Assembly (NCBI GenBank): GCA_050633305.1
Contig: JBOEGF010000011.1
Coordinates: forward strand, 63,312 to 127,311
DNA: 64,000 bases
Direction: 5' to 3'
Source of the DNA: Nannocystales bacterium
Lineage (GTDB): Bacteria; Myxococcota_A; Polyangia; Nannocystales; Nannocystaceae
The translations under genes were made by a program, and so were the position numbers. Shown piece by piece: positions 27,159 to 39,390 of this stretch. Under the pieces are notes generated by a model that was given only the letters and a program-made list of their open reading frames with translations, did not search any database and was not told the DNA's origin. Positions within the stretch are counted from its first letter, which is position 1. The number at the start of each line of letters is the position of its first letter.

Positions 27159-27707
27159 CTACAGGCGGTTGTCGAGCGGGACGCCGAAGACGTAGTCGGA
27201 GACCGCGGCGGAGCCTGCACCGTGGCAGTCTTTGCAGAATCCGACGGGACCGGAGTCGCCAACCGCACCCTCTTCGTCGACACGGAGCCAGTACCAGTCG
27301 TTGCCGCTGGGGTCGTATCCCTCGGGGCCCTTGTACATCGCGAAGAATCCGGCGGACTCCCCATTGGCGTCGAGGTTTTCCTTCACGATCAGCGCGCCTT
27401 CGGGGAAGGTGACTTCGCTCGGATCGTCGGGATCGATGGTCAGGTACAGGTCGAGGACGTCGTCGGCGACGTAGAACGTCACGGTGTCGGCGAGTCCGTG
27501 CTGGGACCCGAGGGGAACGTCGCTGACCTGCGTGAGGCTGGCGAAGTCGGCGGCCATGGCCTGCACTGCGGCTTCGTCGATCTCGGCAGGGCCGTCGGTC
27601 TCCGTGCCCGACTCGGGGCCGTCTTCCATGCCGTCGTCACACGCGGGGCAGACCAGGCTGAGCAGGAGGCAGCAAGAAGCAAACGTTGGGCGTCGGAGGT
27701 TGAGCAT
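27159..27707 (-). CDS. Cytochrome P460-family c-type heme lipoprotein
   Basis: Lipobox CPAC; FPEGALIVKE, AMYK, GNDWYW and C-terminal CKDCH, the P460/cyt c'-beta arrangement. Confidence 0.8.
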   Translation of the reverse strand: MLNLRRPTFASCCLLLSLVCPACDDGMEDGPESGTETDGPAEIDEAAVQAMAADFASLTQVSDVPLGSQHGLADTVTFYVADDVLDLYLTIDPDDPSEVTFPEGALIVKENLDANGESAGFFAMYKGPEGYDPSGNDWYWLRVDEEGAVGDSGPVGFCKDCHGAGSAAVSDYVFGVPLDNRL

Positions 27708-27710
27708 GGC

Positions 27711-28445
27711 TTATCGGGAGTCTCGAGGGGATGTGGTGCTCGACGGTGTGAACACGCCGTACTCGACCAGCGACCGATCGGCAGCCTCGATGTCGTCCTG
27801 CGTGAGCGCCCCGAACATGGGGGGGAGCTCGCAGATGCCCTGTCGGCGGGCAAGTGCGGCGAGACCCACTGCGGTGGGAAGAAAGTGATGCAGTGAGGCA
27901 TCGCGCGCGTGACGGTAGACGAACACCACTTGGGGGTGCGCTTCGGGGAGGGGTGCCGCTGGGTCTTCGGTGAGTGCACCGAAGTAGTCGGAGACGGGGT
28001 GGGTGTACTGCCGCACGAAGACTCTCCCCTCGTATGCGTCCGGCTCAGATTCGTTACCCGAAAAAGCGCGCTGCCGGATGTAGCAGAGGTCGGCGAGCTC
28101 TTCGAAGACCGGGTGGAGTGCATCTCCCGACTCGCGGAGTCCCCGAAGGTAGTCGCTGAAGTTCGCGCCGAACCGGTTGGGGTCCCAGTGATCGGCGGGG
28201 TGGGCGTCGCGATACGCCCGGACGAGCTCGGGCCAGCGCCCAGGGAACTCCCGAATAAACAGCGCGCGTACGACCGGGAACACGTCCGCGAGGATGTTGA
28301 AGTGATTGCGTTCGACCAGCGTGCTGTAGAACCCAAGGTTCTCCGCGCCGCTGGGGGAGGGACCGAGCGTGTCGATCACCGCCTGTGCGGGCGTACGCCC
28401 CTCGAGCATCGGGGCGATCGTCTCGAAGAATCGATCGAGGCTCAT
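27711..28445 (-). CDS. DUF2063-type MNIO partner protein (HvfC/BufC-like, putative RiPP recognition)
   Basis: LGFYSTLV..N...LADVFPVVRAL...W.ELVRAY..AHP...WD.N.FG..F.DYL; ATGA overlap with the DUF692 gene. Confidence 0.82.
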   Translation of the reverse strand: MSLDRFFETIAPMLEGRTPAQAVIDTLGPSPSGAENLGFYSTLVERNHFNILADVFPVVRALFIREFPGRWPELVRAYRDAHPADHWDPNRFGANFSDYLRGLRESGDALHPVFEELADLCYIRQRAFSGNESEPDAYEGRVFVRQYTHPVSDYFGALTEDPAAPLPEAHPQVVFVYRHARDASLHHFLPTAVGLAALARRQGICELPPMFGALTQDDIEAADRSLVEYGVFTPSSTTSPRDSR

Positions 28446-29305
28446 GCTGCATCGCTCCCGGTCGAGGCATCGGCACCGAGGACCTCGACGTAGACTTCGC
28501 GGACCGCATCGGCTTCGTCCAGGACGCGGTCGAGTTCGGGGATCTCGGTGTCCCACTCGAGCAGGACGGGAACGGGGCCGGTGGAGCGGAGCGCCTCTCG
28601 GAGGACTGAGAACACACCGGGGACCACCGGGTGCCCGTGGTTGTCGATGAGTCGGCCTTCCTCCTCAACGTGTCCCGCAACGTGCATCTGCAAGGTGCGG
28701 TGCAGCGGAAGGGCTCGGAGCCACTCCTGCGGGTCTCCGCCGTGGTTGGTCGCGTTGACGAAGACGTTGTTGACGTCGAGCAGGAGCCCGCAGTCGGCCT
28801 CCTGGGTCACTGCGGTGACGAACTCGCCGTGGGTCATCTCGCTCCCGGGCATCACTGCGTAGAAGCTGATGTTCTCGACACCGACCGGTCGCTCGAGACG
28901 GTCGGAAAGCTCGCGGATCCGCTTGGCGCAGTGTCGGACGGCTTCGTCCGTGAACGGCAGCGGGAGCAGGTCGTGATAGGCGACGCCGTTGATCGCGGCG
29001 TAACAAAGGTGGTCGGTGTAGTAGGGCGCGTCGAGCTCATCGAGGAGCTGTTTGAGGCCGGCAACGTACTCGCTGTTGAAGGGGGCACGGCCACCGAGCG
29101 ACATCGATACGCCGTGGGCGATGATGGGCCACCGCTGTGCGCATTGGCGAAGGACTCGCCCCGCGGGGCCGTCGTTGCCGACGAAATTCTCGGGGACGAT
29201 CTCCAGCCAGTCGATGCGGCGGTCCGTCTCGAAGATGCTCTTGTAGTGCGGCGGGCGCAGTCCGATTCCGACGCCACGTGGTTTTGAAGGAGCCCGGTTG
29301 TTCAT
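28442..29305 (-). CDS. DUF692 multinuclear non-heme iron oxidative enzyme (MNIO; MbnB/TglH/ChrH/HvfB/BufB family)
   Basis: GIGLR, WLEIVPENF, HGVSMSLG, TDHLCY, DLLPLP, VENIS, LLLDVNNVFVNATNHG, MHVAGH, IDNHG, LLEWD. Confidence 0.95.
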   Translation of the reverse strand: MNNRAPSKPRGVGIGLRPPHYKSIFETDRRIDWLEIVPENFVGNDGPAGRVLRQCAQRWPIIAHGVSMSLGGRAPFNSEYVAGLKQLLDELDAPYYTDHLCYAAINGVAYHDLLPLPFTDEAVRHCAKRIRELSDRLERPVGVENISFYAVMPGSEMTHGEFVTAVTQEADCGLLLDVNNVFVNATNHGGDPQEWLRALPLHRTLQMHVAGHVEEEGRLIDNHGHPVVPGVFSVLREALRSTGPVPVLLEWDTEIPELDRVLDEADAVREVYVEVLGADASTGSDAA

Positions 29306-29329
29306 GGGAAGGGGTGCGCGACAACGAGG

Positions 29330-29360
29330 AAAGCCCGGGCCCGCATACGCAGGTCCGGGC
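29330..29360 (-). terminator. Hairpin (weak terminator or RNA stabiliser) between precursor and MNIO genes
   Basis: Minus-strand GCCCGGACCTGC-GTAT-GCGGGCCCGGGC-TTTCC. Confidence 0.65.
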
Positions 29361-29398
29361 CAGGATTCCGTCCGCGACCGAAGTCGCGAGGTTCGAAA

Positions 29399-29737
29399 TC
29401 AGCCGGAGGTCGAGGAGGAGCCACCGGAGGAGGAGCCGGAGGAACCGGAGGAGCCGGAGGAACCGGACGAGCCGGACGAACCGGACGAGCCAGCATCGGT
29501 GGTCGAGGCGGAGTCGGTACCAGCGGTGGTCGTGGTGGTGGTGCTGGTCGTGGTGGTCGTGCTGGTCGTGGTCGATCCGGCGGTCGGGCAGCCAGCGGTG
29601 GAGGTGGCGGTGGTGGTCGCCGCCGAATCGGTGCCAGCGCCGGTGTCGTCGCCGTCATCGCTGTCGCAGGCGGGGACGAGTGCAAGTCCGGCGGACAGAG
29701 CGACGGCTTCGAGGATGTTGGTCAAGTTCTTGTTCAT
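29399..29737 (-). CDS. Putative MNIO-modified RiPP precursor: 112-aa lipoprotein, one internal Cys, Thr/Ser/Gly-rich
   Basis: GAAAGG RBS then MNKNLTNILEAVALSAGLALVPAC-DSDDGDD...TSTAGCPTAGSTTT...(GSS)7SGGSSSTSG; first gene of the MNIO unit. Confidence 0.75.
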   Translation of the reverse strand: MNKNLTNILEAVALSAGLALVPACDSDDGDDTGAGTDSAATTTATSTAGCPTAGSTTTSTTTTTSTTTTTTAGTDSASTTDAGSSGSSGSSGSSGSSGSSGSSSGGSSSTSG

Positions 29738-29822
29738 TTGAAATGGCCTTTCAAATCGAGGTGCCCGAGGGGGCCGGACAACCTCGCCCGCATATACACC
29801 ACAGCGGTCGACACGGACGCGG

Positions 29823-30791
29823 TCAATCCTGGTGAGGATTAGCACAATTGTCAAAAAAACGTTCGACCTGCTTCCGAGCGGCCGGTTCCATTCGTTCAAA
29901 GAGCCACATAGCCTGCGTACAGCGCTGTTTTGCACGTGTTGGGTCGGTTTCCCAGGCGCGGTCCCAGCGCCACCGGGCGCGGGGCGTCACGTCATCTTGG
30001 CAAGCGCGGTCCCAGCCGGGTGCCACTTTTGCATCGATGATCGTCTCCCCGCAGACGATGTCGACGAGGGGATCCACCAAGGTGCGGTCGTGGGCGCCGT
30101 ATTGCTCCATGGGCGATTCGTCCTCGAACAGCGTGTAAGGCGTGAAGAATCCGCTGCCGTCGGTCCCGCGGTTGACCAACCCGAACTCGCCTCGCCGCGT
30201 GTTCTCGCGCCGGCCGGGGTCATGGCAGGGAAGGCAGGCGTTCTTCTGGCGGAACGCCTGGGTCTGGGCGTCGCGTGCGGCGGGCTCCCACGAATCAAAG
30301 GGTTCCGAGGTGCCGATGCGCTTGGCGATGTAGTCGGTCGCGGCGGCCTGCGCCTCGGCGTTGTTCGAAGGCCACTGCGCGCCGAACAAGGACGCGGTGG
30401 GCCTCGGCGCCGAAGGCCGAAACACATGGAAACGCGGCCCGTTCGGGGTCAGGGTGGTGCCGCGGATGTCGGCGACGAAGCGCTGGTCTCCGGTTCCGCC
30501 AACCTCTACCCGGTCGGCACGCGTCCCGGCCGGAAACACGAGCACACTGCGGCCATCGATCGTGGTGGTGGTGATCGAGCCCTCGCCGAGCTTCAGCCAC
30601 ACCGTGACTTGGTCCAGCGAAGGGTCGCCGGTAGGGATGTGTACGGGCGGGACGAGAGCGGTGAACCCCTCGCGTTCGTGAAACGTGAGCGCGGACTCCA
30701 TCCGGATCGCCCGGGCGCCGTGCTCGAGCGTCGGCAGGCTGTCGGAGCGGCAGCCGGCGAGCAGCAAAGCACACAGGGCGAGGCGATTCAT
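29823..30791 (-). CDS. Lipoprotein with a single CxxCH heme-c motif
   Basis: MNRLALCALLLAGC lipobox; VFPAGT; NACLPCHD. Confidence 0.7.
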   Translation of the reverse strand: MNRLALCALLLAGCRSDSLPTLEHGARAIRMESALTFHEREGFTALVPPVHIPTGDPSLDQVTVWLKLGEGSITTTTIDGRSVLVFPAGTRADRVEVGGTGDQRFVADIRGTTLTPNGPRFHVFRPSAPRPTASLFGAQWPSNNAEAQAAATDYIAKRIGTSEPFDSWEPAARDAQTQAFRQKNACLPCHDPGRRENTRRGEFGLVNRGTDGSGFFTPYTLFEDESPMEQYGAHDRTLVDPLVDIVCGETIIDAKVAPGWDRACQDDVTPRARWRWDRAWETDPTRAKQRCTQAMWLFERMEPAARKQVERFFDNCANPHQD

Positions 30792-30864: not shown

Positions 30865-31824
30865 TCAGACTCCGTCCGCATCCGCGCAGACGCCGACGTT
30901 GGCGTTGGTCCCAGGGGGCGGAGTTCCCTTCTCGTACCAAGGAAAACAAACCAGCGCGTCTGGGCAGTCCGGGGCCGTCATGTCACAAAAAGGTGTGCAG
31001 CAGGCCGCGGAGTCGCAGGCCGCGGAAAGGTCGCCAGCAACGCAGGCGGTTCCAGGCTCACATCCATTGACGAACTCACAGGACTCGAACAGGCCTCCGC
31101 CTGTGCCCGAACCATCCACCGTACACAAGAATCTGTTGTCGAAGGGATAGCAGCCCTCACCGTCCCCGCACTCGTCCATCAACGGATCGCACGTCGGAAG
31201 GCACAACGACAGGACCCCGCCGCCGTTCATGATGCAGACGCGCGTGGGATCCTCGCAGCTCGGGGCTCCGGGCGAGCCGACGCAGTGCGGGGTGCAGACT
31301 CCGAAACCGGTCTCATCATCGACGTCCCAGCACATTGAGCCGAGCTCACACGAGTCGACTCCTGAGGTCACGGTGGCCTCCACCGTACAGGGCTCCCCGG
31401 CTGCGTCGGGGTCGTCGACGATCGCTGTACACCGCGTCGCGTTCCAGCTGTTGCCTCCGTCGTTCGCCCACGGGGTGCATTTCTCGCCCGGTGGACAGTC
31501 CTGCTCGAAGAGGTCGCAGTCATCGATCGGGCCACCGCTCCCGTGGCAGCCGATGAACCCGCAGCCATTCGTGCTCGAGCCTTCCGTGTCACCGAACCCG
31601 CCGGTCGTGGGGTCGTACGGGTCGGTCGAGGTTTGCGGCGGGTCCGGGTTCGTCGGGGAGGTGGGGTTGGGTGGGACCGATGACGTGGCCGGTCCGGTGG
31701 AGCCGCCGGAGGGTGGGTCGCCTCCGGTTGAGCCGTCGCCATCCGCAGGCGTCGCGACCGCAGGACCGCAGGCGGACATGGCTCCTAGGGACAGGATAGT
31801 GAGGCGGCGGGACAAGGAAAACAT
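30865..31824 (-). CDS. Cys-rich lipoprotein, paralog 1
   Basis: Lipobox MSAC; CDLFEQDCPPGEKCTPWANDGGNSWNATRC...CCTPFCD. Confidence 0.85.
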   Translation of the reverse strand: MFSLSRRLTILSLGAMSACGPAVATPADGDGSTGGDPPSGGSTGPATSSVPPNPTSPTNPDPPQTSTDPYDPTTGGFGDTEGSSTNGCGFIGCHGSGGPIDDCDLFEQDCPPGEKCTPWANDGGNSWNATRCTAIVDDPDAAGEPCTVEATVTSGVDSCELGSMCWDVDDETGFGVCTPHCVGSPGAPSCEDPTRVCIMNGGGVLSLCLPTCDPLMDECGDGEGCYPFDNRFLCTVDGSGTGGGLFESCEFVNGCEPGTACVAGDLSAACDSAACCTPFCDMTAPDCPDALVCFPWYEKGTPPPGTNANVGVCADADGV

Positions 31825-31970
31825 GGGTTGTAGGAGGCCCGAAGGAGCTGCGCCGAGTCTGTCTCAGCATCATGAATAATATACCAAAGCTGACCTGCGC
31901 GTGGTGAATGTTAGTTTTGTCTTGGGTTGCGCGACTGAGCCGAGGCCGAAGACGGCCCTGTGGCCCGTCT

Positions 31971-32438
31971 TCACCCGTAGAGTTTCTTGGCGTACGTCGG
32001 TCCGTAGGAGCGCTCGAGTTCCTCAAGCGTCCGGTCCCGAGCTTCGATGGCTTGCGCGGTCTGTGCACGAGACGGCACGGCGTCCGTGTCCATGTGCTCG
32101 CCTCCCAGCTCGACCTCCAGGGCGAGCGCCGGCCGATGCCCTGCGACTTGCATCGTGTCCCGCTACGGAGCTTCGCGGACGATGCGGGCGCGTCCGTTGA
32201 CCCGCAGTGTGTCGTTCCGGCCCGGGATCAGAAACAGCAGGCCGACCCCGGGGTTGCTCAGCACGTTGAGCAGGCTGTCCGCCCATCGATTCCCAGGGCG
32301 CTCTGGGATCGCGAGGTTGTCGGACTGAGCACCTTCACGCACCGGCTGGATCGCCCTTGGGGGAGACATCGCGTCGGCCTGCGGAGTCGGATGTGGCAAC
32401 GAGCACGAACCGTCTTGAACGTACGTGCTGCGGTCCAT
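31971..32438 (-). pseudogene. Degraded pyridoxamine-5'-phosphate-oxidase-like FMN-binding protein (MSMEG_1061-type)
   Basis: Pieces in different frames: FVLVATSDSAGRRDVSPKGDPAG / VKVLSPTT / LAIPERPGNRWADSLLNVLSNPGVGLLFLIPGRNDTLRVNGRARIVREAP, in-frame TAG, then MQVAGHRPALALEV...YAKKLYG. Confidence 0.8.
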
Positions 32439-32469
32439 ACTTCGGGATTAACACGGGGAGCCATGGTGT

Positions 32470-33435
32470 TCATGGCGCCGGTTGGGTGCCGCACAGACCG
32501 AGGTCCTCGTGGCCCGGCGTTGCCTGGCCATCGGCGAAGTAGGGCAGGCAGGTCGTTGGCTCAGGGCACATCGGTGCTGAGAGGTCGCAGTAGGGCGTGC
32601 AGCAGAGAGAAGCCTCCGGCGCGCAGGCTCCGACCGTACTCCCCTCGGCACAAACCAAACCTGGGTTGCACGCGTTGAGGAACTCGCAGGTCTCGAACGC
32701 CGCGCCCGCGTTTCCAGACGCGTCGGGAAGACAGCCGAACGCGGTGCCGATTCTCCCGCAGCTCTGCCCGTCCCCACAGGAACCCACGTCAAGAGGGTCA
32801 CAGCCAAGCCGACACAGTGCCATGAGCCCATTGCTGCTCACGGTGCAGAGCCGGGCTGGGTCCTCACACGAAAGGTCGTCCGGGGTTCCGACGCAGTAGG
32901 GAATGCACACGCCTTCGTCGGCTTGGGTGTCGGCGACCCTGCAGATCGAGCCGAGGTCACAAGAGTCGATGCCCGAGACACCGCTGCCCTTGACCGTGCA
33001 GGGCTCACCAACCCCGTCCGGCTGAGGGTCGATCGGGAAGCACTTGGAGGCGTTCCACTGCGAGCTTCCGTCGTTTGCCCATGCGTTGCACTTCTCGCCG
33101 CGAGGGCAGTCTTGTTCGGTGATCGAGCACTCCTCGGGCTCGTGCGGGCCACCGTCGGGGTCACAGATGAAGCCGCCGCAGCCGCTCGGGTTGCCGTTGG
33201 TCTCGTCGGCACTCGTACCGAGGGCGCCGCCGGTACTGTTGCTGCTTGTCGGGTCCTCGCCGGACGAAGCGTCGGCGGAGGGGAGGATGCCGGTTGTCGT
33301 CGAGCTCGTGGGGCTCGACTCGCCGGAGGATGCATCATCGCCAAACTCGGTAATCGAGAAACACCCTGGCAGGCTCACGGCGAGGCCGAGGAGGAGCGAC
33401 GTTCTCTTGTCGACGGAGCCGCTTCTCGTACTCAT
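32470..33435 (-). CDS. Cys-rich lipoprotein, paralog 2
   Basis: Lipobox LPGC; CSITEQDCPRGEKCNAWANDGSSQWNASKC...CCTPYCD. Confidence 0.85.
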   Translation of the reverse strand: MSTRSGSVDKRTSLLLGLAVSLPGCFSITEFGDDASSGESSPTSSTTTGILPSADASSGEDPTSSNSTGGALGTSADETNGNPSGCGGFICDPDGGPHEPEECSITEQDCPRGEKCNAWANDGSSQWNASKCFPIDPQPDGVGEPCTVKGSGVSGIDSCDLGSICRVADTQADEGVCIPYCVGTPDDLSCEDPARLCTVSSNGLMALCRLGCDPLDVGSCGDGQSCGRIGTAFGCLPDASGNAGAAFETCEFLNACNPGLVCAEGSTVGACAPEASLCCTPYCDLSAPMCPEPTTCLPYFADGQATPGHEDLGLCGTQPAP

Positions 33436-33691
33436 GAGCCTTCCTCTTCCAGTCCGCAGGAGCCGAGCGTTTCCAGCCCTTTCGGTGCCGCGCCCGAGGA
33501 TGAGCAGGGCCCCAACTCGGGGTGGGTTTGGTTGTCCCTGCATGCTCCCAGGATAGCGATAGAATTGATGTTTTGGTAGTTATGGTTGCTTTCTTTGAGC
33601 GTCACGGGCGCCGTCGAACAGCTCAACGTGGACGGCCGCAGCATCCCTGGTGGGGCTCTGGGGGCTCGCAGAGCGGACGTGCGACCGGGTC

Positions 33692-34561
33692 TCACGTTTG
33701 CGAAGGGAGCCGAGCTTCGACCGCGGCATCCACCAACTCGCGTAACCGGTCAAGGAGCCGATCGTCGAGCTGTTCCTTCGTCAGCTCGTTTCCTGCCGTC
33801 TTCCGAAGTCGAAGCAGCGCGCTCGCTTGTCGCGACTCGAGCTCGATCAACAGCTCTTTGCTTTCGGTCTCCAACTCTTTCATCCGACGGTGGTGTGCCG
33901 CCTGAGCTTCCGTTGCTTCGAGTTGTGCCGCGGTTGTGCGTTTCGTGATCGCCAAGATGCCCTTCGCATCAAGGATGTTGTTCTTGTCGAGCTGCTCGAT
34001 GGGCGTCTGCTCGAACCTGTCGATCGCAAGTGTATCGAGGGTGTAGCCGCCGAGCTCTTCGCCGATCTGCTCGCGCACCGCGAGGGTGAGCTCATCGCGT
34101 CGCTCGTGGTGCTCGGCAAAGGTCTTGCGCGTCGCGATGGACTCGAGCGCCTGGGAGAACTTGGCTGCGAACAGTCCTTCGAGGGTTCTTTGTTGCGTGG
34201 CTCGCTCTGCTCCCACCGACTGTGCGACCCGCAGGACGTCCTCCAAGGTCTTGTTCACCCGCAAGCTGAACGTCGCACGAAGGTTGGCCCGGATCCCGTC
34301 TTTGCAGATCAGGCCTTGGGATCCAGTGCGCTCGATGACCAAGCTCGCGGCGCTGATATCCATGACTTCGGACTTGTGAATGACCGGGACCGCCAAGCCT
34401 CCCGTGAAGAACACCGAGACCTCCGCCATCTTGTTGACGATCAGCGCCTGGCCGCTGGGAACCTTGATGTACATCCGACCGTAGAGCGCACCGACTCCGA
34501 GTGCGAGCGCCAGGATCGTGGCCATGGTCACGAGGAGGGGGATCAATGTCTCAAGCACCAT
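33692..34561 (-). CDS. SPFH/flotillin-like membrane protein (short form)
   Basis: N-terminal TM; YIKVPSGQALIVN, PVIHKSEVMDIS, GLICKDGIRA, VLRVAQSVG, NILDAKGI. Confidence 0.75.
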   Translation of the reverse strand: MVLETLIPLLVTMATILALALGVGALYGRMYIKVPSGQALIVNKMAEVSVFFTGGLAVPVIHKSEVMDISAASLVIERTGSQGLICKDGIRANLRATFSLRVNKTLEDVLRVAQSVGAERATQQRTLEGLFAAKFSQALESIATRKTFAEHHERRDELTLAVREQIGEELGGYTLDTLAIDRFEQTPIEQLDKNNILDAKGILAITKRTTAAQLEATEAQAAHHRRMKELETESKELLIELESRQASALLRLRKTAGNELTKEQLDDRLLDRLRELVDAAVEARLPSQT

Positions 34562-34678
34562 GCGCTGCCCACTATCGCAGGCGGGCCCGGACCTCGGCCA
34601 CGTCGGCGTGTCCGTAGGGACATGGGGCTCGTTCGTTGGCACGGGTTCTGCCGACCTGGTCCGGGCGATGCGGCCGGG

Positions 34679-35290
34679 TCATGGAAGGCACAGGGCGAGG
34701 ACGCCGCCAGTCGCGACGTGACAGCGTCTGTCCGGGTCTTCGCACGTGAGTGTGTGATGCGGCCCGGCGCAATAGGACACGCAGGTTCCCTCGAGCGTGC
34801 GTCCGTCGACGAACCAGCAGATCGATCCGAGGTCGCAGGAATCGACACCCGAGATGCCACTGCCCTCGACACTGCATCGCGCGTCGACGTCGTCCGGATC
34901 CTCCACGACGGGAAAGCACTTCGCTGCGTTCCAGGCCGAGCCGCCGTCATCCGCCCACGCATTGCATTTCTCGCCCCGCGGACAGTCTTGCTCGAGCGTC
35001 GAGCACTCGATGCCAGGGCCCCCACCGTCGGGCGCGACGATGAACCCCGGCCCATCGGGGTCATCGGCAGTGCTGGAGTCGCCAGATACCGCCGCTTCAC
35101 GTGAGGTGCTGGCGTCAGTGGTCGAAAGGGGGGCGGTGGTATCGCCGGAGGTCCCTTGCAGTGCGGTCGTCGCGGTGACCTCTGGATTTGTCTCATCGCC
35201 GGAGGTTCCCACGACGGGTACCGGGGCCCCGGAACATGCGGCAAGGAGCAGGGGGGCGACGATTCGCCTCACCGCGGATCCTGTCCGCAA
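34679..35290 (-). pseudogene. Cys-rich lipoprotein, paralog 3, C-terminally truncated
   Basis: Lipobox LAAC; aligns with the other paralogs to ...GGVLALCLP then TGA; no homologous continuation found in other frames. Confidence 0.7.
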
Positions 35291-36228
35291 ACCCCGACAT
35301 CCTCATACCCCGGAGGGACCATGCCCTCGGGGAAGGCCGAGATGCACTGTGTCCCCTCAAGGCAGGTGGGGTCTTTGAGATCGCAAAACGGTGTGCAACA
35401 GGTCTCGGCCCCCTCGTCGCAGAGGCCGACGACAGCAGCGTCGGTGCAGGCCAGTCCTGGGTCGCAGGCGTTCGGGAAGGTGCAGGTCTCGAACGCCGCA
35501 CCGGCGTCCTGTGAATCGTCTGGTGCACACTCTAGCGTGTCGTCGAGCAGGTAGCAGCCCTCGCCATCGACGCAGTTTTGAAGCAGCGGATCGCAGGTGG
35601 AAAGGCATAGAAAGACCAGGTTGCCTGCGGCGCAGGTCAGTCCGTCCTCGCAGACCGGGGCATTCTCGGAACCGGTACAGAATGAGACGCACGTGCCTTC
35701 GAGGGTGCGGGAGTCGACATCCCAACAGATCGAACCGAGTGCACAGGAATCGAGTCCGGATACGGGGGAGCTCTCGACCGTGCACGGAGCTCCGGGGATG
35801 TCGGGAGCCCGGTCGACCGGGACGCAGCGGGTGGCGTTCCACATGCTGCCGCCGTCATTTGCCCAGATGTTGCACTTCTCGCCCGGAGGACATGCTTGCT
35901 CGAACACAGAGCATTCAATGTCCACGCCACCGTCGGGGTCGATGAGAAATGTGTTGCCGGTGGGCTCGTCCGTTGAACTCGACGCGGCCCCTGTCGATGT
36001 GGTCGAGGTCAACTCGACTCCAGAGGTTTGCGTGGTGCCCGGAAGCTGTCCTGTCCCCGGTTGTGCACTCGTCGTACTGCTGCTGCCAGGGTTCGCGTCG
36101 CTGGTGGCTTCGCTACTCTGAGAGTCAACGAGCGAGCTGCAGCCACCGAGGAAACAGCCGATGAAGAGCGCGAGCGGCCGTCGGTGATCGGAGACGCGGG
36201 TTCTCGAGCGGACGTCCAATAGCCTCAT
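35269..36228 (-). CDS. Cys-rich lipoprotein, paralog 4
   Basis: Lipobox LGGC; CSVFEQACPPGEKCNIWANDGGSMWNATRC...CCTPFCD; start may be a downstream GTG. Confidence 0.85.
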   Translation of the reverse strand: MRLLDVRSRTRVSDHRRPLALFIGCFLGGCSSLVDSQSSEATSDANPGSSSTTSAQPGTGQLPGTTQTSGVELTSTTSTGAASSSTDEPTGNTFLIDPDGGVDIECSVFEQACPPGEKCNIWANDGGSMWNATRCVPVDRAPDIPGAPCTVESSPVSGLDSCALGSICWDVDSRTLEGTCVSFCTGSENAPVCEDGLTCAAGNLVFLCLSTCDPLLQNCVDGEGCYLLDDTLECAPDDSQDAGAAFETCTFPNACDPGLACTDAAVVGLCDEGAETCCTPFCDLKDPTCLEGTQCISAFPEGMVPPGYEDVGVCGQDPR

Positions 36229-36279: not shown

Positions 36280-39200
36280 TTAGTGGAAGCTGCGGACTGT
36301 TGTCCCCTGGCTCTCGAACTTCAGATCCGGGTCCCACAGCTGCTCGGCGACCAAGTGCACGACCCCGTCCTGCGACTGCACACGTCCGGTCACGCCGAGC
36401 AGCACCGCGGTCTTGGCCAGCACCGCGTGGGCCTCGAAGACCTGCTTCCACACCACGACGTTGACGGTGCCGGTTTCGTCCTCGAGCGTATAGAACGTGA
36501 CGCCGGCGGCAGACCCGGGGCGTTGACGGCAGATAACCATGCCGACGTACTGGGTTTTGCGGCCACCACGAAGCGCATTGACCCCATCGGCGGTGGGCAA
36601 GCGACGCCGCCGTAGCTGGGGACGAATGCATTCGATCGGGTGTCCACGCACGCTGTGCATGCTGGTGCGGTAGTCCCAAAGAATGGCCTCGCTTCGGCTG
36701 AGTTGGGCGAACAAGGGTCCGTTGTCGCTCTCCTCGTCTTGGTGAGGAACGGTCTCACCGGGCAAGCCCAAGGTGTCGCCCAGCTTGGCAACCAAGCCGC
36801 GCAGGGACCAGATCGCATCGCGTCGCTCGATGCCCAGGGAGCTGAATGCGCCGGACTCGGCCAACGTGTGCAGAGGTTTTTGGCCCAACCGTGTACGTCG
36901 GACAAAGTCTTCGGCTCCGACGAACGGACCTTGTTCGAGCGCAGCCTCGACTTTGGCCCGCTGCCGCTCGCCAAAACCCTGCACGTACCGAAAGCCCATG
37001 CGGACCGCGAGGTCACCTTCGCCCCCGTCTTGGACCTGTCGCTCGAGGGTGCAGTCCCATTGGCTGGCCATCACGTCGACCGGGAGCACGGTGACGCCAT
37101 GATGTTTGGCGTCTTCGACGATGCTGCCAGGGCTGTAGAAACCCATCGGTTGGGCGTTGAGCAGGCCACACGAGAACGCCGCATGATGATGGCACCGCAG
37201 CCAGCAGGTGACATAGGCGATGAGTGCAAACGAAGCAGCGTGGCTCTCGGGAAAGCCGTACTCCCCGAACCCGCGGATCTGCGAGTAGACCCGCTCGGCG
37301 AACTCTTGTGGGATGCCATTGGCGATCATGCGACTGATGAGTCGTTCGCGGTGCTGCTCGATGCGACCGCTACTCCGCCATGCCGCCATGTCGCGCCGCA
37401 ATTGGTCCGCTTCACCGGGGGTGTAGTCGGCGACGAGTACGGCCAGCTTCATGACTTGCTCTTGAAAGATCGGGATGCCCAACGTTTTGCCCAGCGCCTC
37501 CTTGAGGGCAGGGTGGGGGAACTCGACCTTCTCTTTGCCGGTACGCCGCCGTAGGTAGGGGTGCACCATGTCGCCTTGAATCGGCCCGGGCCGAACGATG
37601 GCGACCTCGATGACCAGATCGTAGAAGGTGCGTGGTTGCAGCCGCGGAAGCATGGCCATCTGGGCGCGGCTTTCGATCTGAAACGTGCCCAGCGTGTCGC
37701 CGCGAGAGATCATGGCGTAGGTGACCGGGTCCTCGGCAGGCACGGTGGCCATGTCGAGGTCGAGCCCCTCGTGCTCGCGCAGTAGATCGAAGCAGCCGCG
37801 GATCATCGACAGCGCACCCAGGCCCAACAGGTCGACCTTGAACAGGCCCAGGTCTTCGACGTCGTACTTGTCCCACTGGATGACGGTGCGGTCTTCCATG
37901 GTCGCGGGCTCGATCGGCACCAGTGTGTCGACTGGCGCATGTCCGAGTAGGAAACCTCCAGGGTGGATCGACAGGTGCCGCGGAAAATCGGCGAGCTCGC
38001 GACAGCGCTGCAGGAGGTGCACGTGTTGTGGCGCGGCGGGATCGAGGCCGGCGTGTTCGAGCAGGTCGGCACCGAAGCCGGTGTCGTAGTGCGTGAGCAT
38101 CTTGGCGACCCTATCGAGCGCGGTCTGTGGAATCCCCAGTGCTTTGCCGACGTCCCTCACGGCCGAGCGAGCCCGGTAGCGAATGAAGTTGGCGACCATC
38201 GCAGCGTGGCGCCGTCCGTAGCGCTCGTAGACCCACTGAATGACCTCTTCGCGACGCTGGTGCTCAATGTCGAGGTCGATGTCGGGGGGCTCGGCGCGCT
38301 CGAGGCTGAGGAAGCGCTCGAACAGCAGCCCCATACGCACCGGGTCGATGGCAGTAATGCCCAGGCAGTAGCAGACCGCGCTGTTGGCCGCGCTGCCGCG
38401 TCCTTGGCAGAGGATCCTCTGCTGACGGCAGAACTGGACAATCTCCCACATCGTCAGGAAGTAGCCGCCGTAGTCGAGCTGATCGATGAGCCCCAGCTCC
38501 TTGTCGAGTTGGGCCCTCACGTCCTGAGGGATTGCACCGTGGTAGCGGACCTTCGCGCCCTCGTAGGTCTTCTCGCGCAGCCACTGTGCGGCGCTCATGC
38601 CTGCGGGCATCCACTCCGCCGGGTAGACGTAGCGGATCTGGCTCAGCGAGAAGTCGCAGCGTTGCGCGACTTCAAGGGTGCGATGCAGCGCGGGCAGATC
38701 GTCGGAGAACAAGTCCTCCATCTGCGCGAGGGTCTTGAGGTCGTGCTCGGCGTTGCCGCGGATCAGATCGCCGGCGGTGGCGAGCGTGCGTCCGTGACGA
38801 ATGCACGAGAGCACGTCCTGCAGCGGCCGCCTCGAGACGCTGTGATACAGGACCTCGACAGATGCCACCCGTGGCACAGCCAAACGGGATGCAGCTCGCC
38901 GCAGGGTGTCCTCGTCCCCCAGCTCGCTGCTGTGGCGATGCCGAGCGCACAAGGCGTAGAGCCTGTCGCCGAAGGCCTCGTACAGGGGTTCGAGAAGATC
39001 CCCGTGGGGACAGAGCACCAGAAGGTCCTCGGGGGCGCACAGAAGCTCATCGAGGTGCGTGATCGAGGTGCCTTTCTCGCAGCGAGCTCGACCGGCCGAC
39101 ACCAAGGTGCAGGCGTTGGCATATCCGCGTTGGCTCGTCGGGAGGACCACGACCGACTGCGCGATCTCGGGCGCATCGCCCACGCTCAGCTGGGTGCCGA

Positions 39201-39390
39201 GAATGAGTCGTTGCCCCAGCTCCTTGGCCTTCATGTGGGCCCGGACACCGCCGTAGAAACCGTCTCGATCGGTCAGGGCGAGCGCTGGGAGTCCCAAGGT
39301 GTGTGCCTGCTCGACCAGCTCAGCCGGGTGCGAGCCACCCTCGAGAAACGAGTAGTTGCTCTTCACCCAAAGGGGTACATACGCGTCCAT
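36280..39390 (-). CDS. dnaE2: Error-prone DNA polymerase III alpha DnaE2 (ImuC)
   Basis: PHP domain SNYSFLEG, GRGSAANS, PPDIDLD, QWDKYD, YGFPESHAASF, QPMGFY, C-terminal VRSFH (variant of the SRDFH tag). Confidence 0.97.
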   Translation of the reverse strand: MDAYVPLWVKSNYSFLEGGSHPAELVEQAHTLGLPALALTDRDGFYGGVRAHMKAKELGQRLILGTQLSVGDAPEIAQSVVVLPTSQRGYANACTLVSAGRARCEKGTSITHLDELLCAPEDLLVLCPHGDLLEPLYEAFGDRLYALCARHRHSSELGDEDTLRRAASRLAVPRVASVEVLYHSVSRRPLQDVLSCIRHGRTLATAGDLIRGNAEHDLKTLAQMEDLFSDDLPALHRTLEVAQRCDFSLSQIRYVYPAEWMPAGMSAAQWLREKTYEGAKVRYHGAIPQDVRAQLDKELGLIDQLDYGGYFLTMWEIVQFCRQQRILCQGRGSAANSAVCYCLGITAIDPVRMGLLFERFLSLERAEPPDIDLDIEHQRREEVIQWVYERYGRRHAAMVANFIRYRARSAVRDVGKALGIPQTALDRVAKMLTHYDTGFGADLLEHAGLDPAAPQHVHLLQRCRELADFPRHLSIHPGGFLLGHAPVDTLVPIEPATMEDRTVIQWDKYDVEDLGLFKVDLLGLGALSMIRGCFDLLREHEGLDLDMATVPAEDPVTYAMISRGDTLGTFQIESRAQMAMLPRLQPRTFYDLVIEVAIVRPGPIQGDMVHPYLRRRTGKEKVEFPHPALKEALGKTLGIPIFQEQVMKLAVLVADYTPGEADQLRRDMAAWRSSGRIEQHRERLISRMIANGIPQEFAERVYSQIRGFGEYGFPESHAASFALIAYVTCWLRCHHHAAFSCGLLNAQPMGFYSPGSIVEDAKHHGVTVLPVDVMASQWDCTLERQVQDGGEGDLAVRMGFRYVQGFGERQRAKVEAALEQGPFVGAEDFVRRTRLGQKPLHTLAESGAFSSLGIERRDAIWSLRGLVAKLGDTLGLPGETVPHQDEESDNGPLFAQLSRSEAILWDYRTSMHSVRGHPIECIRPQLRRRRLPTADGVNALRGGRKTQYVGMVICRQRPGSAAGVTFYTLEDETGTVNVVVWKQVFEAHAVLAKTAVLLGVTGRVQSQDGVVHLVAEQLWDPDLKFESQGTTVRSFH

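Follow-up and report, generated by a model that had tools for sequence, protein, structure and literature searches.

A five-gene MNIO (DUF692) system with Gly-Cys-Pro precursors and haem-motif lipoproteins in Nannocystaceae and other Myxococcota

Results

A five-gene locus in a Nannocystales genome

We analysed a 64,000-nucleotide stretch of contig JBOEGF010000011.1 (assembly GCA_050633305.1; hereafter the window) from a Nannocystales bacterium, in which an MNIO (DUF692) gene stands in a set of five genes. Coordinates are in the numbering of this 64-kb window, and the whole set lies on the minus strand (Table 1). The original prediction, made from the letters of the DNA, had described an operon of four co-oriented genes, with an ATGA overlap, a 3-nucleotide (nt) gap and a hairpin in one spacer, and open reading frames (ORFs), Pfam matches and folding bear out each of these elements. 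As a unit, the four-gene operon was incomplete: it lacked a conserved fifth gene directly upstream of the precursor gene, present in a single copy in the genome, and it left out substrates whose genes lie in other parts of the genome. The ORFs of the five genes are all intact in the window, and the P460-fold lipoprotein gene begins 3 nt past the gene of the DUF2063 partner. The locus is a five-gene system of Nannocystaceae and other Myxococcota, to which substrates encoded elsewhere in the genome have to be added.

Table 1. Features of the five-gene locus, in the order of transcription
Feature	Position	Strand	Remarks
Fifth gene, predicted lipoprotein, 322 aa, one CxxCH and extra conserved Cys	29823..30791	(-)	no Pfam family
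Putative ECF-sigma promoter position	29793..29820	(-)	alignment of 7 genus upstream regions; function inferred
Precursor lipoprotein, 112 aa	29399..29737	(-)	leader/signal peptide, lipobox Cys24, acidic linker, one GCP, Thr tract, Gly/Ser tail
Gly49-Cys50-Pro51, last remaining GCP of the window precursor	29585..29593	(-)	predicted MNIO target
GC-rich hairpin and short U run in the precursor/MNIO spacer	about 29330..29360	(-)	folding; genus-level only
MNIO (DUF692), 287 aa	28442..29305	(-)	PF05114, 322 bits
DUF2063/PME-type-1 partner, 244 aa	27711..28445	(-)	PF09836 36.3 bits, cut-off 27.2; ATGA overlap with MNIO
Cytochrome P460-fold lipoprotein, 182 aa	27159..27707	(-)	lipobox Cys23, Lys109, CxxCH 158-162, Phe122, conserved His70
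aa, amino acids; ECF, extracytoplasmic function; GCP, Gly-Cys-Pro.

The spacer between precursor and MNIO is 93 nt long and contains the hairpin followed by the short U run. Its folding score is modest (z = -2.0) and the hairpin is not among the calls of a terminator scan; the stem was seen again in all six same-genus loci that were folded. The hairpin is likely to be a leaky terminator or an mRNA stabiliser.

A clade of MNIOs that keeps its neighbours

A quick tree of 95 MNIO proteins from the fetched loci, which are a chosen subset of all matches, groups the window enzyme in a clade of 44 rows (SH-aLRT 93) from Nannocystaceae and at least four other families of Myxococcota. The residues H64, H99, E144, D177, N180, H208, E250 and D252 are kept in 43-44 of the 44 rows, D252 being the equivalent of D249 of FonB by motif position and not by direct alignment, and six further residues (R29, W59, T97, M152, G160 and V261) are diagnostic of the clade and rare in other MNIOs. 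With 57-61% identity, the enzymes of Plesiocystis pacifica, Enhygromyxa salina and Paraliomyxa miuraensis fall within the range of the clade, and cultured hosts for the system are probably available.

On the same fetched piece as the MNIO gene, a GCP protein is encoded at 40 of the 44 clade loci, a P460-fold gene at 36 and the fifth gene at 37, in agreement with the expectation that the MNIO clade would keep this type of precursor and a P460 gene. Most gaps occur at contig ends, and the absent genes were located on other contig pieces. Among the 51 MNIO loci outside the clade, we found one P460 gene (3.5 kb away), one lone GCP-like match and no fifth gene. As the same arrangement recurs across the clade, it is far beyond chance; the genomes are related and these counts are not independent, and no statistic is claimed for them. 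Out of 72 genomes in the order, 37 have the fifth gene, 37 a clade MNIO and 36 both, with part of the MNIO matches of the remaining genomes placed in the tree. In a sample of the phylum, 12 of 401 genomes have the fifth gene, ten of these with a clade MNIO. No DoxX gene follows the MNIO operon and the single DoxX gene of the genome is on another contig; a lipoprotein with a haem-binding motif does stand in the position of DoxX, as had been proposed.

Other MNIO contexts were noted in passing. Two adjoining, divergent MNIO-like genes (about 27% identity, PF05114) at L145:3874-5833 are convergent to a GCP-P460 fusion gene, and no precursor was identified for them. In three genomes (L114, L115 and L117), an MNIO gene lies directly downstream of the gene for a Cys-containing protein of ~700 aa, the start of which we take to be ferritin-like or VioB-like. 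At L060:1-870, a two-domain P460-fold protein is encoded 3.5 kb upstream of an EKKCG-repeat precursor and an MNIO outside the clade, and is possibly an independent P460-MNIO link.

Gly-Cys-Pro repeats, their leader and their fusions

Besides the lipobox residue Cys24, the window precursor has a single further cysteine, Cys50, which sits within Gly-Cys-Pro. Cys24 is unchanged in all eight aligned precursors and a lipoprotein signal is predicted, export being judged from pattern and conservation. In other members of the class, GCP stands in 2-16 tandem copies behind a similar leader, and 328 of the 341 repeat-region cysteines in 43 collected sequences (three of them false positives) sit in GCP, in a set that was chosen for having at least one GCP. 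The window precursor matches no precursor family in Pfam or NCBIfam, which is consistent with its earlier description as a precursor of no known class; what that description missed is the repeat that defines the class and that is nearly lost in the window copy.

With 112 aa, the window precursor has the length of orthologues with 5-6 GCP, a Thr tract taking the place of the repeats, and for these reasons it looks eroded. Together with a closest relative (L150) that has 2 GCP only, the same features make it unlikely that the single GCP reflects collapse of repeats in the assembly. Two further GCP proteins are encoded in the genome. One is a lipoprotein of 121 aa with seven GCP (L154:5452-5817); in the other, of 202 aa, four GCP are fused to a P460-fold domain (L145:2674-3282). 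When the 123,281 ORF segments of the genome were searched with a hidden Markov model (HMM) of the leader, three matched at E<0.01, every one a GCP protein, and the next match had an E of 0.18; the L154 protein was outside the training set yet was found. As the leader HMM finds exactly the three GCP proteins, we infer that the signal peptide also serves as a leader for recognition, with the enzyme acting in trans.

Erosion of the repeats, along with the degenerate -35 box described below, would also be expected if this copy were in decay and had ceased to yield a useful product. Given that the five ORFs are intact, that the MNIO ligands are conserved and that the genome encodes, at other sites, two substrates with several GCP that share the leader and have a GTAAC[CG] box each, we regard decay as extremely improbable.

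GCP-P460 fusions occur in seven genomes (L057, L073, L074, L088, L092, L145, which is from the window's own genome, and L146) and cover two P460 domain subtypes, while a few precursors (L073, L074 and L075) have a Cys-rich C-terminal domain instead.

The P460-fold lipoprotein

The last gene of the locus had been assigned to the cytochrome P460 family, and the assignment holds. Its PF16694 score of 25.2 bits is just short of the cut-off of 27; nevertheless, the P460 fold is confirmed by comparison of a predicted model (pLDDT >87 across residues 41-150) with known structures. The best match is 7EAD (Z 12.9, rmsd 2.4, 121 residues), and the Foldseek matches listed at E<=0.001 are all of the P460/c'-beta kind, with Z of 8.1-12.9 against 4.2 for the next fold. 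Searches of the PDB with the single sequence or a close alignment gave nothing useful, and a diverse alignment alone gave a match. The protein shares its fold, a C-terminal CxxCH and a Lys at the cross-link position with the P460/c'-beta superfamily (7EAD, 6HIU, 6AMG and 2JE3; PF16694; PMC11928373), from which it differs in being a lipoprotein, in having no distal carboxylate, in a near-invariant His70 and frequent His111, and in being tied or fused to an MNIO substrate.

Lys109 is invariant in all 47 domains and aligns to K78 of McP460 (6HIU) and K106 of NsP460 (6AMG numbering), the aligned position in 7EAD being Phe; a cross-link of the haem through Lys109 is predicted. His70 is kept in 44 of the 47 domains and position 111 is His in 32, and from the register of the alignment both may lie close to the haem. 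The position of the distal carboxylate (equivalents: NeP460 Glu96 / Asp102, Ala131 in inactive NsP460) is occupied by Phe122 in the window protein and, over the 47 homologues, by Thr in 30, Phe in six, Leu in five, Asn in three, Ala in two and Ser in one, never by Asp or Glu. This call comes from sequence alignment, and a carboxylate could be supplied from another position.

These residues bear on the suggestion of hydroxylamine chemistry in the original prediction. P460 proteins without a distal carboxylate are reported not to oxidise hydroxylamine (PMC11928373), and oxidation of hydroxylamine by the window protein is unlikely because Phe122 holds that position. A system for NO or hydroxylamine chemistry with this protein as hydroxylamine oxidase would fit the P460 fold (Z 8-13) and the cross-link Lys that all 47 homologues have; with no Asp or Glu at the required position in any of the 47 rows, we consider it very unlikely, although binding of NO alone would still be possible.

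Two stand-alone P460-fold lipoproteins, near-identical to one another, are encoded in the same genome (L143:4320-5054 and L144:4465-5268), with the cross-link Lys present and no MNIO nearby.

The fifth gene encodes an unnamed haem-motif protein

The ORF of the fifth gene can be extended to 30881, and the signal peptide fits a start at the ATG at 30791. The family comprises 361 clusters at 50% identity, and its CxxCH is invariant in 36 of 36 aligned members and in 150 of 150 top representatives. There is no Pfam family for it (one of the 36 members has a weak match to Tll0287), and its matches in the Atlas are to unnamed clusters only. The model of the fifth protein is confident (pLDDT 92.5), with no Foldseek match at E<=0.001 and no informative sequence match in the PDB. 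Compared with five P460-family chains it gives Z of 4.1-5.0, within the top 50 and level with unrelated folds, and hhalign of the family to a P460 alignment gives a weak match (probability 39%, E 3e-4). The fifth protein may be a P460/c'-beta-fold protein, enlarged and distantly related; an invariant Arg would occupy its cross-link position, provided that the FPxGT register shared with the P460 proteins is correct.

The fifth gene remains linked to the MNIO clade when the gene order changes, and at three loci (L134, L135 and L136) neither a clade MNIO gene nor a P460 or GCP gene lies within about 4.5 kb of it. A complex prediction for the fifth protein, the P460 protein and two haems scored 0.01, which carries no weight either way. 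An apparent DUF2063-fifth-gene fusion (P0170) was set aside, since it seems to result from a frame error. Another protein, P0176 (1544 aa), has a fifth-gene domain behind Ig-like, PKD, propeller and CCP_MauG/cytochrome c domains.

A SigF-like box upstream of GCP genes

The word GTAACC is present on the sense strand upstream of 22 of 41 GCP genes and is absent from the antisense strand, against a mean of 1.3 and a maximum of 6 in shuffles. In the relatives it is mostly followed, 16-18 nt on, by a CGTA/CATA-like word. This box matches the -35 element of Caulobacter SigF, which is reported to bind GTAACC-N16-CGAA and to control DUF692 operons and an MsrP-type gene (PMC3511200); a similar box is described for Bradyrhizobium EcfF (PMC3420878), and bufferin operons are described as SigF-controlled and Cu-induced (PMC11626156). 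An initial genome-wide promoter scan was too loose (199 matches). A tighter scan gave 19 sites, of which 12 were followed up as a post-hoc lead only, and these include an MsrP-like oxidoreductase, a redoxin, a Rieske/cytochrome b pair and an ECF sigma factor with a zf-HC2 anti-sigma. A scan for sigma-70 promoters and terminators found nothing relevant. At L156:1011-1703, a SigH-like ECF sigma factor and a zf-HC2 anti-sigma are encoded with a GTAACG box ahead, a candidate regulator of the system.

A common ECF-type promoter could by itself account for clustering of the genes. The GCP lipoprotein would then be an ordinary captophorin-like metal sponge, and the haem genes would encode stress proteins that share its regulation and are otherwise unconnected with it, physically or chemically. 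The presence of an MsrP-like oxidoreductase, a redoxin and the ECF/zf-HC2 pair among the box sites, the absence of the P460 gene at 8 of the 44 clade loci and the existence of stand-alone P460 paralogues all fit such a view. It does not account for GCP-P460 fusions in seven genomes and two domain subtypes, nor for a fifth gene that tracks the MNIO clade (36 of 37) and stays linked to it despite changes in gene order, and we hold co-regulation without any further link to be distinctly unlikely.

Relation to known MNIO systems

The system resembles the captophorins (BufABC of Caulobacter, HvfABC oxazolin and FonABC fontiphorin; PMC11626156, PMC12668002, PMC12452194) in its order of precursor, MNIO and DUF2063 genes and in its exported Cys precursor with short repeats, and further in its BufB/HvfB-like enzyme and in the GTAACC-type box upstream of about half of the GCP loci. 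At the window locus, a PF05114 MNIO with metal ligands and catalytic Asp adjoins a DUF2063 partner, with an exported Cys precursor upstream. Whereas captophorin precursors have Lys-Cys, Cys-Lys or DUF2282, the motif here is Gly-Cys-Pro in an uncharged Thr/Ala/Gly context; there is also no DoxX, there are two haem genes and repeat-haem fusions, and the BufB/HvfB score is below cut-off. We found no DUF2282, 6/12-Cys or EGKCG precursor, equivalog scores are under the cut-offs and the clade is a separate one. On these sequence features the system is judged captophorin-like in its working but outside Buf1, Buf2 and the EGKCG family, and as such a new variant of the captophorin/DAG-RiPP kind.

The lipobox Cys after a hydrophobic signal, from which lipidation is predicted, is a feature shared with DAG-RiPPs (NedA-NedBC and DybA-DybH; PMC13056109), which are likewise MNIO precursors with a lipoprotein signal and predicted membrane anchoring; their motifs are different, namely EGKCG, CPACGMG or CxxxxC. 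Membrane-anchored MNIO products, which the original prediction had suggested to be undescribed, are not new in kind, since lipidated NedA and DybA are already published (PMC13056109). The accessible text of that paper names no GCP class or haem partner, and its supplementary list of MNIO-linked lipoproteins may contain GCP proteins.

Closer in host range are EGSCG-type lipidated oxazolin-like loci, one of which (L100) is in the window's own genome: a lipoprotein precursor is followed by an MNIO in the same hosts, but the MNIOs form a separate clade (25 rows, SH-aLRT 98), the repeats are Ser-Cys-Gly and there is no P460 or fifth gene. L100 and 24 related loci of Nannocystaceae encode lipoprotein precursors with E-[GA]-S-C-G repeats, oxazolin-like with Ser for Lys.

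The MNIO landscape of PMC12452194 notes hundreds of unclassified MNIO precursors; neither a GCP class nor a P460 neighbour is named in its accessible text, and by keyword both GCP and P460 are absent from its two supplement files. The captophorin datasets of PMC13097082 include MNIO-PME1 pairs of Plesiocystis, Enhygromyxa and Nannocystis. By keyword, the accessible files of PMC13097082 contain no AGCP-, GGCP- or GCPT-repeat precursor, part of their 56 GCP occurrences having been inspected, and one Lys-rich precursor with GCPGK twice. A full-text search of the literature, the coverage of which leaves out most subscription journals, returned no article joining DUF692/MNIO with P460, or thiooxazole with Cys-Pro, and a broader search gave none that, by its title or the opening of its abstract, deals with this system. 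The 25 AGCP matches in the captophorin datasets presumably belong to one Fe-S protein family.

Neighbouring genes

At positions 30865-36228 of the window, also on the minus strand, at least four paralogous Cys-rich lipoproteins are encoded in a loose array (30865-31824, 32470-33543, 34679-35290 and 35269-36228), and have in common a Ser/Thr linker and a Q-x-C-P-x-G-E-K-C domain; the first of them (30865-31824) has no match in Pfam or NCBIfam. A large ORF at 36280-39390 is presumably that of an error-prone, DnaE2-like DNA polymerase III alpha.

Discussion

Building on the gene content, conservation, fusions, residues and fold established here, we lean, with somewhat more than an even chance of being right, towards a system in which the MNIO-DUF2063 pair turns the cysteines of GCP into 5-thiooxazoles and the resulting anchored Cu array works beside haem proteins under copper or oxidant stress. 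All characterised MNIO-PME1 pairs are reported to install 5-thiooxazole, with products that generally bind Cu (PMC12668002), and DoxX is reported to be dispensable for modification (PMC11626156). The type of the upstream box, the GCP-P460 fusions and the published lipidated examples (PMC13056109) speak for the same reading. An ECF sigma factor of the SigF/EcfF promoter type would induce the genes. In the cytoplasm, the DUF2063-RRE partner would bind the conserved signal-peptide leader, and the MNIO, by analogy with its relatives, would take four hydrogens per Cys, the Gly-Cys carbonyl attacking the thioaldehyde directly; direct attack fits Cys-Pro because it is the sole proposed route that does not need an N-H on the next residue. 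Sec export and lipidation at Cys24 would then anchor the product, the array of thiol heterocycles would bind Cu, and the P460-fold lipoprotein and the fifth haem protein, replacing DoxX, may handle peroxide or NO or the redox state of the array. With its own precursor eroded, the enzyme probably works for the most part in trans, with the two remaining GCP proteins of the genome as substrates.

Several observations weigh against this reading. The enzyme falls short of the NCBIfam cut-offs of its nearest families, BufB (NF050167, 290<310) and HvfB (NF003818, 277<360), and also of NF050145 (24<142). FonBC, the only captophorin enzyme that has been scanned, is reported to tolerate Pro nowhere and to want a small residue after Cys (PMC12668002). 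The window's own putative promoter is degenerate at the -35 position (GCGTCC) and reads TGTATA at the -10 position, 19 of the 41 upstream regions have no GTAACC, and the -10 box differs from that of SigF. No copper genes were shown to be linked to the loci, a point on which no systematic search was made. The clade itself comes from a quick tree, from related genomes, and P460-fold paralogues without an MNIO occur, for example the two in the window's own genome. Lastly, the P460 gene is absent from 8 of the 44 clade loci (one of these has a remnant and one has the gene on a separate contig piece). No P460 gene lies near L027, L037, L038 or L066, and L025 has a P460 remnant; L040 and L042 lack both an adjacent precursor and a P460 gene, with GCP-P460 fusions elsewhere in their genomes (L092 and L146). 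A search of genome G001, which is 94% complete, found no P460-fold copy. The P460 gene is thus not essential everywhere, given its absence from G001 and from other clade loci.

Pro follows every target Cys, and since FonBC accepts it at none of the positions, Cys-Pro may undergo a different chemistry. The same genes might carry out another reaction, such as a thioether or thioaminal cross-link, loss of carbon or cleavage of the backbone, and the product would then be chiefly something other than a copper sponge. CPACGMG is the motif modified by ChrH-type enzymes, whose products are different (PMC13056109), and the clade-diagnostic residues that are rare elsewhere, like the scores under the equivalog cut-offs, would be in keeping with a departure of this sort. 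The enzyme is, however, nearest to the BufB/HvfB group and has a true DUF2063 partner, every characterised pair of this type makes 5-thiooxazole, and in our reading of the scheme in PMC12668002 the direct route needs no N-H at the +1 residue. To a different chemistry we give a small but real chance.

The modification could also be part of a more elaborate arrangement, in which the MNIO is a cofactor maturase that makes Cu-binding heterocycles in GCP tethers, beside or fused to a Lys-cross-linked P460 haem, and the whole is a membrane-anchored haem-copper redox unit served by the second haem protein. We put this forward tentatively, as something rather unlikely. If true, it would be the first MNIO chemistry on Cys-Pro and would give a P460 haem a job outside nitrogen metabolism.

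The system stands out for a target Cys that is invariably followed by Pro, for fusions of the repeats to a P460-fold domain and for an unnamed haem family that accompanies the enzyme, the chemistry being predicted. In PMC12668002, two routes to 5-thiooxazole are left as candidates, and one of them requires that the residue next to Cys have an N-H; since Pro has none, a natural Cys-Pro substrate would decide between them. Were 5-thiooxazole formed on GCP, it would support the direct route, while any other product would be a new MNIO reaction. The fifth gene adds an unnamed haem-motif family, for which there is a confident model and no clear counterpart among known structures. P460-fold proteins without an assigned role are common, and one clade of them now has a genetic context, fusions and a testable function.

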